Positions 60,001 to 63,000 of a stretch of 64,000 bases of DNA are shown piece by piece. Origin of the DNA: a virus (Duplodnaviria > Heunggongvirae > Uroviricota > Caudoviricetes). Position numbers: made by a program. Location: IMG/VR virus record IMGVR_UViG_2880378312_000006, one strand, 5' to 3'. Positions within the stretch are counted from its first letter, which is position 1. Each line of letters opens with the position of its first letter.

Positions 60001-63000
60001 GAAAAACAGAAAAGGGCGGCTTATTCTCTGAAACGATTTCTTCAATGCGTTTGGCGTGTGCCGGATGTGGATTGTAAATATCGATGTCCATTGAACGGGC
60101 CAGAACGCCAGCGGCAACGTCACGTTCCACTGACGCATCATCGTGGACAAAACCTTCACCGCGATCGGTAAGAATTCCTCCGCCAGCATTAGCGCCGGAT
60201 GGCGTGCGGCTGATGCGTAAAACACGATTTCCTTTCATCCACTCTTTTGTCAGCAGACCTCGATCGGTATAGTCAGCGTCCAGGTATGCTTCGAAAAAAG
60301 CAGTCATTAACCCCAGACTGGAATTAACGGGATTAGGGAAAACTTTGTCTGTGTCGCGTACCAGTTTGTGAAGGTCGCGAATCTCCAGCGGGTCGAGCAG
60401 CTTTGTGTTGTGGGAAATAGCCAGGGCAGTAACAGCAGGCAGTTCTTCAGCTCGTGCGATATGTAATGCCTGAAGTTCTTCCCGTGAAACGTGCGTTACC
60501 GGTTTTTCGCTGCCATGTTGCGCAAGCCAGCGAATGGGCAGTTCCTGACCGGAAATCGGCAGGAGCATATTATCCTCAATCTCAGCCATGTCTTCGCCAT
60601 TGACGTTGGTATTGTCAGTGCTGGCTGGTTTGTCCTGAACTGAGGGGGAAGGCGCTATAAATATCATTGTGATGCCATCTTCTCCGCCTTTTTCATAGCG
60701 GTTGCAGAATTCAGTATCGAACACACCTTCAGGCGGCAGGTCATTAACAATGGGCAAATTCACGCGAACAGGTTTTTTGAAATCCTCTTCGTCAAATCCA
60801 GCATCGTCCATTGCGACAACACCCCGTGATATTGCAACCGATAATTTTTTTGCTGTGCGCCAGTAAAAACCGCCTTTAATCCCAAGGCGTTTTCTGACTT
60901 TGTCATTTTTGGCTTCGTAATACAGTGCAATTTCTTCTTTATCAGTGCTCATTGATAAACCTCATAACTATTTTAAGGTTGTACGAATCCCTGCTATTGC
61001 TGGCATGCTTAATCAACGGGTATGGCGTTAATACGGCTGGCGGGTTATCCAGCCGGTATTTCGTTATTCAGGTACAGCGATACTTTGTTTAACGGGAGAC
61101 ATTCACCGGAAATTTTTTGCTCGTCTCTTGCCTGATGGCAGGATTCTTTACTGGCATAAATTCCGGTAATCACATTCTGTGGCTCACCTGTTATAAGAAA
61201 AACCGTCATCATCAGTGCAAACGCTGAACTCACTGCTGCCCTCCGAAAATGCCAAGTTCAAGAAGGGCAATTCTGGAGAGTATGGAATTATCATTGAGAA
61301 GATAAGGCTCATATTTTCTCATCCTGATGGCGTCTTCAGTAAACTCCCGGTTACTGAGCAGAATACCAATATTAAAACACCCTTCAGACGTATTAACGTT
61401 TGGTAGTGACGTTTCCATTATCGCGTCCTCAACAATGAATTTTGTGATGCGGTGCCTGGTGCCTCCAGGTGACGTTAACCAGTTAACAATTAACGCCGGA
61501 TACAGAGAATCCACCCATAACACTGTTTTTGGTTTTAACTGTTCCGCGTGCGCTCAGCCGCATTCACCACATCACAAAATTCACTTTAAAAAGGGCGGCA
61601 GAGCAGTCACGGAGTAAAACTGATACCGCCAAACGTCACCAGAAAATTGATAACAGAGGGCGTTGCAGCGGGGTTGTCACTTAAGCGTATGGTCAACCTG
61701 ACAACCCGGTGTCCTCAATGGGGAAGGAATAACCCCGCCATACTTACCGCCGCGCCATTTCGCGGAGTGCCACAACCGGAAGCGCACGTTCGAAGAAATC
61801 TAACGACAAGCCTTCTAAGGGAAAGAGCTTCGCCGTACGCTTTCGCGTTATGCACTGACTTTTCAGGGAAATATCCTTTCAGTAAACTGTCAGTACCGGA
61901 TTCTTATCCGTGTCCGGCGCACGACCACACGTGACAGCGTGTTGGTCTCCATTTTTAACCCAGAACCTCAATGGAGGATAAAATGCCAAACAAAAAAAGA
62001 AATCCGCTTATTGAAAAACAGATTGAATGCCTGGTAAATCAACTCAGGCAATCAGGGTTATTAAAAACTCATTCAGAGTTGAGGCTCACAGAATCAGCAT
62101 TCGACGATAAATTAAATAATGTCCTTTATAATGGCATTATTGATTTTAATCGTTCTGTTGGTCGCCGCGGCCCTGCTGGTGTTTCCTTATAATTACCAGT
62201 CAATCCAGAGTGGACCGTGTTCAGCGTAAATATAACTGTACACATCCAGATTATATTTGTGGTCTGTTAAGAACAGGCCGCAAATACATGCCGAAGCTTC
62301 CAGTGCAGCGGCTCTGTTACTGAATAACCATGTAGCAACATTCCAGCGTTTTTCTGCATCCCAGTCTTTCTCAAGGCCTGATACCATGAAGAAACCGTTA
62401 GTGTTGCCATCAAATAATTCTGTTTCCAAATTTTTAAGCAATGCCTGATGGACTCTTGCCAGGTATTCCGCCGGAATTTCGCCACGAATTCTGATGAGAT
62501 TGTCATAAACAAACATGTTCCCCGCATATGGCGATTTTTCTTTCTTGTTTTTTAAACCAGCATCATGAGCAAACTGATCAATTTCTTCTTCCGTTGGTTT
62601 CGTATTGATGTTTTGCGCTGTCGTTTCTGCAATTTTATTTGCCACACTCTCTGAGTCGTGTTTATTTATAGACGCACAGAAATACAATCCGGTAAACGCA
62701 TCGCGCACATTACGAGCCATATTATCAGTGTCTTTTTTCGTTACCGATTCCAATTCAAGTTCGTTCAGACGATGACGAAGTGTGTGTGCTGCAATCTCCT
62801 GGATTGAAGGAGGTAAATCTTTAAATTCCATCGTCAACCTCATCAGTCAGTGTTTCTGGCTAACCAGCGACGCGCGCCAGCTTCAGTTTTAAACGTTTTG
62901 CTTTTGGTATACGTCATCGCGGTGAACGTACCGTCCTGGTTGGGGAACACGCCACATACCAGAGATTCGTTGTTGCCAAGATTGAGCGTATCCATGTTGA

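Follow-up and report, generated by a model that had tools for sequence, protein, structure and literature searches.

What does a lambdoid prophage keep between its early-left promoter and dicF, and what might two genes that face each other head-on at this place do? The question was raised by positions 61983-62995 of a 64,000-nucleotide (nt) stretch of Caudoviricetes DNA (IMG/VR virus record IMGVR_UViG_2880378312_000006), which in its whole length is called the window below. Here prophage 2 carries a cassette with a ydfA-like gene of 50 amino acids (aa), a gene for a 212-aa protein and, on the opposite strand, a gene for a basic 69-aa protein, the last two forming a convergent pair. The region is one allele of a hypervariable convergent two-gene locus in the early operons of enterobacterial temperate phages. 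By analogy of layout, the two products may be cognate antagonists belonging to opposite prophage states, their genes arranged in the manner of a pore-forming colicin gene and the gene for immunity to it, a reading to which we assign a probability of roughly 0.4.

The final 2.5 kb of the window were 100% identical to Escherichia coli O157:H7 chromosomes, and all three open reading frames (ORFs), which an earlier note made from the sequence alone had placed here, are present and annotated by RefSeq and the Prokaryotic Genome Annotation Pipeline (PGAP) in these identical genomes. The 212-aa gene (62193-62831, minus strand; WP_000394548.1, hypothetical) starts at 62831 (MEFKDLP) behind a GAGGT, and an ATG at 62843, located upstream of this start, falls within its ribosome-binding region. 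The 69-aa gene (61983-62192, plus strand; WP_001133037.1, hypothetical; phrog_4274) does possess the strong Shine-Dalgarno (SD) sequence ascribed to it, a GGAGGA at 61973-61978 located 4 bases before the ATG. The genes are convergent and their stop codons, 62190-62192 and 62193-62195, abut exactly. The 69-aa protein is recognised by the motifs IEKQIEC..QL..SGLLK..S.L...AF..KL and C-terminal GRRGPAGxxL; its isoelectric point (pI) is 9.7 compared to 5.2 for the 212-aa protein, both have a negative grand average of hydropathy (GRAVY; -0.53 for the 69-aa protein), and neither showed a transmembrane segment upon sequence inspection. Judged by the substitution pattern, both are genuine genes under purifying selection: the dN/dS values of the large and the small gene were in the range of 0.12-0.27, including 0.26 and 0.12 (NG86) for the 69-aa gene in the closer comparisons, the synonymous sites being saturated between types. 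At least 80% of the 849-bp pair was found in 564 of 5426 complete E. coli genomes (~10%), which among the matches listed were mostly Shiga-toxin-producing E. coli (STEC).

The 212-aa protein had been described in the earlier note as lacking any recognisable motif. The curated families were indeed blank, yet the protein consists of two domains, each with its own distribution. The N-domain (approximately residues 1-55; 62667-62831, minus strand), with the pattern MEFKDLPxxxQxIAAxxL...RNVRDAFxGLY, is predicted to form a helical hairpin, its helices spanning residues 8-24 and 32-55 in the AlphaFold2 model with a predicted local distance difference test (pLDDT) score of 70-81. Many prophage proteins share it, standing by itself or joined to unrelated C-termini; a 147-aa protein of Shiga toxin (Stx) 2a phages is one example. 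Several PHROGs matched the 212-aa protein only partially (residues 1-50/75) and differed beyond, and in a profile search of 1.84 billion proteins about 45 cluster representatives matched no more than residues 1-50/90. The 212-aa family has two divergent N-domain alleles, and their recombination is independent of the remaining gene.

The C-terminal domain, named C-domA (residues 100-212 plus stop codon; 62193-62534, minus strand), was delimited from alignments and is highly conserved, with the invariant core P..M..Y..LI.I.G.IP..Y...L...L....FDG..NG.F ... A.W.FS...AA.E....I. Distant homologues with 27-38% identity were confined to Salmonella proteins (P0189, P0213-P0217, P0176) whose N-domain is a different one; one of them has an inserted helix-turn-helix (HTH). 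Hydrophobic residues make up most of those invariant over both C-domA subfamilies, the others being D, N, S and E. Because none of the invariant residues is His, Cys, Lys or Arg, C-domA would be a binding module rather than an enzyme. The AlphaFold2 model of the whole protein (pLDDT 65.8 overall) comprised four helices, a linker and a beta-beta-alpha-loop-beta-alpha-beta part in which the FDGxxNG loop was not resolved. The model of the 69-aa protein (pLDDT 58.9) had two helices with the middle and the tail not resolved, and was too poor to be used in a fold search.

C-domA and the 69-aa gene were found together, convergent and with abutting or overlapping 3' ends, in about 90 instances (E. coli prophage contigs and a few Salmonella or reference loci) of the antisense platform described below. 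These instances span several repressors, with or without dicF, and two of them have a frameshifted large gene. In 80 E. coli prophage contigs the order of ydfA, large gene and small gene was constant, while the repressor type and the presence of dicF varied. In Salmonella the pair follows a Mu-type or a P2-type (C/Cox) switch without dicF; the small protein located beside the distant C-domA had ~50% identity and kept the IEKQIEC..QL..SGLLK and C-terminal GRRGPAG motifs, and the N-domain was unrelated. The 69-aa ORF is no incidental frame: it is C-domA's conserved partner and the cargo carried by the antisense platform, which the earlier note had not noticed.

On its upstream side the small gene is preceded by a platform which consists of a promoter-like site and a structured leader, all on the plus strand. 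The putative promoter (61860-61888, TTTTCA-17-TAAACT) has its -10 box at 61883-61888, ending 7 nt before the first hairpin (HP1). The GTAAA of this box was at least 80% conserved over 75 unique instances, and the otherwise unalignable Salmonella contexts have TGnTATAAC or TGnTATACC at an equal distance from HP1. HP1 (61896-61917, CCGGAU...GUCCGG) contains an invariant U-G pair, HP2 (61923-61947) has changes on both sides, i.e. compensatory ones, in six of its eight pairs, and HP3 is formed by complementarity between an anti-SD CUCCAU (61947-61952) and AUGGAG (61971-61976) overlapping the SD. In 35 distinct aligned leaders 96.7% of the cells were paired in comparison with 28-42% when the partners were slid, and none of 500 shuffles reached the observed values; the anti-SD/SD pair was invariant in these 35 leaders, which were selected for having it (39 out of 50 unique leaders do). 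HP2 had a folding energy (dG) of -10.0 against -4.3 for shuffled sequences, 36 of 39 leaders folded better on the small-gene strand, and the folding z-score of the window leader was -2.87 on the plus and -1.35 on the minus strand. The promoter-like site, the hairpins and the anti-SD/SD pair precede the small gene in all contexts, Salmonella included.

The three-hairpin leader is a well-supported candidate for a cis-regulatory RNA that had not been annotated before. For HP1 and the anti-SD pairing a regulatory role is suggested by complementarity only. Over 61850-61990 (plus strand) no Rfam 15 family matched at E≤5. The leader resembles the SD-sequestering 5' leaders, such as RNA thermometers and riboregulators, in having a short CUCCAU/AUGGAG hairpin at the ribosome-binding site, preceded here by two other hairpins. 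It differs from them in the lack of an Rfam match and of a fourU or ROSE motif, and in that its invariant pairing comes without covariation support. HP2 as an intrinsic terminator or a short sRNA (small RNA) was rejected: a U-run follows HP2 in the E. coli variants and is absent from the Salmonella variants. The window scan also detected no terminator between the convergent 212-aa and 69-aa genes, nor one for the small gene, so that their transcripts would overlap.

The platform is a generic cargo site. The HP1 pattern was found in at least 120 viral contigs, and among 200 platform instances in the loci examined many had an ORF starting 57-68 nt (mostly 61-63) after HP1 and 54 had none, the presence or lack of a cargo or facing ORF being judged by criteria of our own. 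At least 15 unrelated cargo families of 57-101 aa follow this one platform. Opposite the cargo ORF there is usually a gene for an N-domain protein, and in the four best-sampled small-ORF families the C-terminal type of the facing protein is specific to the small ORF. The 69-aa ORF faced C-domA in all ~90 cases. Proteins of 179/186 aa with another C-terminal domain, C-domB, face a zinc-ribbon protein of 61/80 aa, with both sides diverged by sequence inspection. The '..NEYERRKKMLSD' type (112-119 aa) faces a 64-aa ORF in both E. coli and Salmonella, the '..AELEHKLNLVSKC' type a 100-aa ORF, and a protein with an alternative N-domain, an HTH and another C-terminus a 70-aa ORF.

A Pfam scan of the cargo ORFs other than the 69-aa one resulted only in a borderline match to GhoS, a type V antitoxin endoribonuclease. 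It came from a 94-aa cargo in IMG/VR E. coli prophage contigs (L111, L130, L170; 21.2 bits, threshold 21), which faces ydfA directly in two of the five copies examined and has no facing ORF by the criteria used in the other three. Several further platform copies were observed. Contig L092 (1593-2548, minus strand) has two in tandem: one precedes a short ORF and a 155-aa ORF, two-transmembrane-like by inspection and without a match to known families, and the other precedes a divergent 69-aa homologue ending ...RRGIPAGVRL. Phage phiP27 (L212, 1800-2120) has the platform with a frameshifted 75-aa cargo, and its annotated ORF L09 begins inside the leader. In the O104:H4 Stx2a phage P13374 (L211, 1801-1990) the platform is truncated after HP2 and followed by an apparent remnant of a 96-99-aa cargo family, beside the N-domain ORF16. 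Finally, three contigs (L080, 6526-7161, minus strand; L086; L090) contain a C-domA variant ending ...WIDWFKG and then an unrelated convergent ORF of 172-211 aa, which matched no known family; by inspection its N-terminal half is coiled-coil-like, and it has zinc-ribbon-like motifs with four Cys.

Searches for a known function of the pair were negative. Neither Pfam-A nor NCBIfam gave a match at cutoff for the 212-aa or the 69-aa protein (best P33MONOX, 12.6 bits against 27), the PHROGs matched were families with function unknown (phrog_2151 and phrog_4274), and no family of PADLOC-DB v2 was hit by the two proteins at E≤1. A few alternative cargo proteins and the Salmonella homologues likewise had no specific PADLOC match; weak partial matches of one zinc-ribbon ORF and two HTH-containing proteins were attributed to generic domains. 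All relatives recovered by searches among 5.8 billion and 1.84 billion proteins came from Escherichia or Salmonella and bore the names 'hypothetical' or 'Ybl81', apart from a repetitive, low-complexity match of 5212 aa (P0182) which was set aside as spurious, and scans of species-representative genomes recovered no relative. Family searches recognised no trafficking, toxin or immunity domain in the locus proteins. The structure prediction and remote homology search proposed in the earlier note yielded the low-confidence model mentioned above, and fold searches with it found nothing significant and no toxin fold; a C-domA profile found nothing among the sequences of the Protein Data Bank. The protein is, as noted earlier, uncharacterised, and homology to a housekeeping phage function did not emerge from the sequence or fold searches. 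A literature search revealed no functional study of Ybl81, the WP accessions, DUF1391 or dicBF cargo.

Several candidate functions were considered and dropped. Weak fold matches of C-domA to the Prp/YsxB cysteine protease, ACT and BMC folds lacked the combination of a significant score and conserved residues (the His-Cys dyad in the case of Prp). A likeness of 'IPxEYL...NG' to SUKH immunity domains was abandoned, since no SUKH/SMI1 family appeared even at E≤1. A lysogeny-establishment role similar to CII or pE was rejected as a general explanation because the small gene is directed towards the repressor and integrase in the Salmonella P2-type context and runs antisense to the repressor in the lambdoid one. 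A type II toxin-antitoxin module was not supported either: the genes are convergent, and neither a family match of this kind nor a toxin fold was found.

The suggestion that the cassette is linked to superinfection exclusion or anti-defence was not supported, as no known family of this kind was matched in PADLOC and only the analogy of position is left. Among the exclusion genes that lambdoid lysogens express from their early-left region are sieB-esc (lambda/P22) and rexAB. The cassette is like them and dicB in being lower-GC accessory cargo of an early-left operon with its own promoter-like site, and unlike them in that its proteins have no homology to SieB, Rex or DicB. DicB, encoded in this same operon type, is a proven phage-exclusion factor (PMC6832061). 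None of the tests made here justifies filing the cassette under superinfection exclusion or anti-defence.

The reading as cognate antagonists is favored because a colicin-like layout is combined here with the swapping logic of polymorphic toxin-immunity systems. The analysis shows that the genes are real, how their domains and the leader are built, that the pair is inherited together and that the locus is polymorphic; promoter activity, the timing of expression, physical interaction and any phenotype are inferred, as follows. The early-operon strand, controlled by the repressor, would encode a modular protein made of the shared helical N-domain and an allele-specific C-domain, here C-domA, and the opposite strand an allele-specific small protein, here of 69 aa, with its own promoter-like site and with the final hairpin of the leader over the SD. 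In the lysogen the small protein would be made from the antisense platform, the leader gating its translation. Derepression of the early promoter would then lead to synthesis of the large protein, and head-on transcription together with fully complementary RNA would silence the small gene. C-domA and the 69-aa protein would bind each other as cognate antagonists, with which their opposite charges (pI 5.2 and 9.7) are consistent. The antagonism may act in either direction: the small protein may neutralise an early effector, or the early protein may switch off an exclusion or host-modulating factor expressed in the lysogen.

The immunity gene of ionophoric colicins is located on the opposite strand, with a promoter of its own (PMC9517006). 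Pore-forming colicin operons share with the cassette a repressor-controlled larger gene with a common N- and a variable C-part and a small opposite-strand gene directly downstream. The likeness is one of layout and not of membership: the geometry agrees, but the promoter of the small gene is consensus-like only, there is no sequence or fold similarity, no recognisable toxic domain and no secretion or lysis gene, and the setting is a phage early operon and not a plasmid. Moreover, colicin immunity proteins of this class are membrane-bound, in contrast to both cassette products, which look cytoplasmic and soluble. With the polymorphic toxin-immunity systems, such as CdiA-CT/CdiI and Rhs (Zhang et al., 2012, PMC3482391), the cassette has in common a conserved N-terminal region, swappable C-domains, an adjacent allele-specific small protein and breakpoints at the domain junction. 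Unlike them, it is convergent, has proteins about 10 times smaller, lacks a trafficking/secretion or recognised toxin or immunity domain, and has no conserved catalytic-type residues in C-domA.

An extension of the antagonist reading, which we consider rather doubtful, is that the loci represent a new class of polymorphic, phase-separated pairs: the small protein of the lysogen would be controlled by the leader, the N-domain would deliver a C-domain that binds and neutralises it, or vice versa, convergent transcription would enforce exclusivity, and conflict among related phages that share a host, Stx phages included, would drive the diversity of alleles (at least 15 families of small proteins).

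A number of observations weigh against the antagonist reading. Confidence is low in the AlphaFold models of both proteins (pLDDT 65.8 and 58.9). The putative promoter of the 69-aa gene agrees with the consensus in only 8 out of 12 positions, which is below the scan threshold; covariation is uninformative for HP1 and HP3 because neither ever varies. Some cargo ORFs face an N-domain-only protein (52-68 aa) or ydfA directly, so that the variable C-domain is not always present. Intact pairing has exceptions on both sides: an intact large gene occurs without the small one in Salmonella (L006 and L007, small ORF frameshifted), the unrelated convergent ORF of 172-211 aa replaces both small gene and platform in the three similar contigs L080, L086 and L090, the junction is deleted in L088, the small gene remains beside a large gene with no more than a partial alignment (L065, L067, L074), and the homologue that an Stx2 phage has of the N-domain protein lacks a convergent partner. 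Pairing of C-domA with the 69-aa gene is in itself no proof of function, since adjacent DNA between recombination flanks is inherited together regardless of interaction. In addition, the literature searched contained no expression, interaction or phenotype data.

The strongest alternative, which we regard as possible although somewhat unlikely, is a recombination hotspot of independent morons, where the small ORFs are unrelated accessory genes placed behind a common antisense promoter and leader, the C-terminal variety results only from a breakpoint just after the N-domain and the products do not interact. Morons, as characterised in a passage of bioRxiv 10.1101/2024.10.15.618418 citing Juhala (2000) and Cumby (2012), are autonomous units inside phage operons. 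The cassette conforms to this in its low GC content (38-44% compared to 47-53% in the flanks) and its presence or absence among similar phages, while its promoter is consensus-like only and a terminator was not found. Its position is variable cargo within a dicBF-type early-left operon, with sharp boundaries. Prophage 2 and prophage 1 of the window are nearly identical over ~63006-63160 and 5278-5433, respectively, the break lying just upstream of the ydfA SD (63000-63004), in agreement with the earlier claim of a module boundary at the SD after a conserved leader, and the identity picks up again on the dicF side from ~61925 downwards, at HP2. A second, nested boundary is located inside the 212-aa gene at approximately codon 51, the junction of N-domain and C-terminus, and the 153 bp of the 5' end of this gene were 96-97% identical in genomes without the remainder of the cassette. 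The many unrelated cargo ORFs that share one platform and one start offset fit independent acquisition as well, as does the persistence of either gene without the other, and several short 'C-terminal extensions' are just antisense continuations into the small ORF, which they overlap by 12-77 nt. C-domA, in contrast, is a genuine selected domain of ~110 residues and not a read-through tail, and it keeps its small partner despite a changed N-domain, immunity system and host genus and despite divergence to 27-38% (large) and ~50% (small) identity; a second pair, C-domB with its zinc-ribbon protein, behaves alike.

It is less probable that the locus acts mainly in cis, the antisense promoter and leader, followed by an ORF or not, insulating the toxic dicF-dicB genes from leaky early-left transcripts by head-on transcription and antisense RNA, and the proteins being secondary. 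In favour of it are the location of the platform in a conserved block just upstream of dicF, where it faces the early promoter and where convergent units have no terminator between them, and its retention without an ORF in K-12 Qin and in prophage 1. In the Qin prophage of E. coli K-12 the polycistronic transcript from dicBp, which is repressed by DicA, covers ydfABC and yields DicF by processing, and overexpression makes DicF as well as DicB toxic. The Qin operon (dicBp-ydfA-ydfB-ydfC-dicF-dicB-ydfD-ydfE) shares with prophage 2 the frame of repressor, early promoter, ydfA, DicF, DicB and a DUF1482 gene; in prophage 2, ydfB and ydfC are replaced by the 212-aa and the opposing 69-aa genes, and the repressor is of the cI/LexA-like S24 type, not DicA. 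The ydfC-dicF interval of Qin in strain MG1655 (L210, 2550-2680) keeps the platform on the antisense strand as well: its promoter-like site, HP1 and a variant of HP2 are retained opposite the 3' end of ydfC, and no ORF follows them. The search of the window for the HP1 pattern gave two matches with 0 expected by chance, one of them a degenerate ORF-less copy in prophage 1 (4529-4552, plus strand), likewise facing the 3' end of ydfC. Two mismatches break its stem, which suggests decay rather than function. Furthermore, platform and cargo also occur in Salmonella elements without dicF or dicB, and the cargo ORFs are under purifying selection with conserved SD and start geometry, all of which speaks against insulation as the principal role.

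Least credible is a classical toxin-antitoxin or abortive-infection module with the 212-aa or the 69-aa protein as a toxin that stabilises the prophage or kills infected cells: a tightly linked, mobile two-gene prophage cassette, one alternative, GhoS-like cargo (21.2 bits, cutoff 21) of the same platform and a possible toxin-antitoxin-like ORF pair nearby in prophage 1, recognised by ORF size and arrangement only, would agree with it, but no toxin-antitoxin or defence model was matched in Pfam, NCBIfam or PADLOC, the genes are convergent and not co-transcribed, C-domA has no conserved catalytic-type residues, both proteins have negative GRAVY values and no transmembrane segment by inspection, and either partner can be intact next to a disrupted copy of its counterpart, without asymmetry.

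The surroundings of the cassette are those of a lambdoid prophage of the O157:H7 type integrated in ompW, a remnant of which adjoins. Along the minus strand, from high to low coordinates, the gene order of prophage 2 is repressor, PL-like promoter, ~160-bp leader, ydfA-like gene, 212-aa gene, DicF, dicB, DUF1482 gene, exonuclease gene, xis and int. The cI/LexA-like repressor ORF (63288-63926, minus strand) contains HTH_3 and Peptidase_S24 domains. PGAP annotates it as a 112-aa 'LexA family protein' (63288-63626), and the actual ORF has 212 aa; the PGAP start was probably miscalled, since the longer ORF holds both domains. A PL-like or dicBp-like candidate for the early-left promoter (63175-63203, minus strand; TTGACC-17-TAAACT) was found by a consensus scan only, just downstream of the repressor gene and in a position corresponding to that of dicBp in K-12 Qin.

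The conserved early-left leader which follows (63006-63165, minus strand) is common to prophage 1 (5278-5433) by pairwise alignment and includes a conserved short ORF, MTAGFNFNNYAAGFCSATPALRGN. This ORF, M(NM)TAGFNFN(N)YAAGFCSATPALRGN, was located at 63006-63076 and 5280-5354 of the window (both minus strand) and in contigs L080 (5403-5543) and L086 (3438-3668). It shares its frame with ydfA in prophage 2, where the two make up an ORF of 77 aa. The short ORF is found again in other prophages and may represent a leader peptide, an N-terminal extension or a mere by-product of conserved DNA. The ydfA-like gene itself (62843-62995, minus strand; 50 aa, DUF1391; SD GAGGT at 63000-63004; WP_000380316.1; phrog_751) matched Pfam PF07151 with 102.1 bits (cutoff 27.3; E=1.2e-29) over residues 29-75 of the ORF 62843-63076.

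The downstream neighbour of the cassette in the early-left operon is the DicF sRNA gene (61593-61644, minus strand), which matched Rfam RF00039 over its full length with 76.7 bits (gathering score 48). Between dicF and dicB a match to STnc100 at 61441-61581 (minus strand) was below threshold (38.4 bits, gathering score 47), and prophage 1 has a full STnc100 match at 15233-15405 (plus strand). In the region of prophage 1 equivalent to the cassette there is a 118-aa ORF (4907-5263, minus strand) with an antisense 68-aa double-CxxC zinc-ribbon ORF inside (4922-5128, plus strand), and the toxin-antitoxin-like pair mentioned above (124 aa and 81 aa; 5559-6084, minus strand) lies between its leader and repressor.

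The cargo of the cassette is genuine, widespread in STEC and uncharacterised. According to Rfam, the protein-family libraries and the literature searched, three features appear to be undescribed: the architecture of the locus with N-domain and leader as flanks, the allele-specific pairing of a C-domain with a small protein, and the leader RNA. Approximately one complete E. coli genome in ten has the cassette, with a concentration in lineages that produce Shiga toxin (O157, O121 and O111 among them), and parts related to its own are found in functional Stx phages, including the phage type of the O104:H4 outbreak. Its operon neighbours DicF and DicB affect, according to the literature, cell division, metabolism, phage resistance and virulence regulation in enterohaemorrhagic E. 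coli. The leader matters independently of what the proteins do, as a regulatory RNA candidate with one simple feature, an occluded SD sequence, and the shared flanks, N-domain on one side and leader on the other, are a practical handle for mining the whole cargo repertoire. If the two proteins are indeed cognate antagonists, such loci would offer new protein-protein inhibitor pairs in compact form and could determine the coexistence or exclusion of prophages in pathogenic E. coli.

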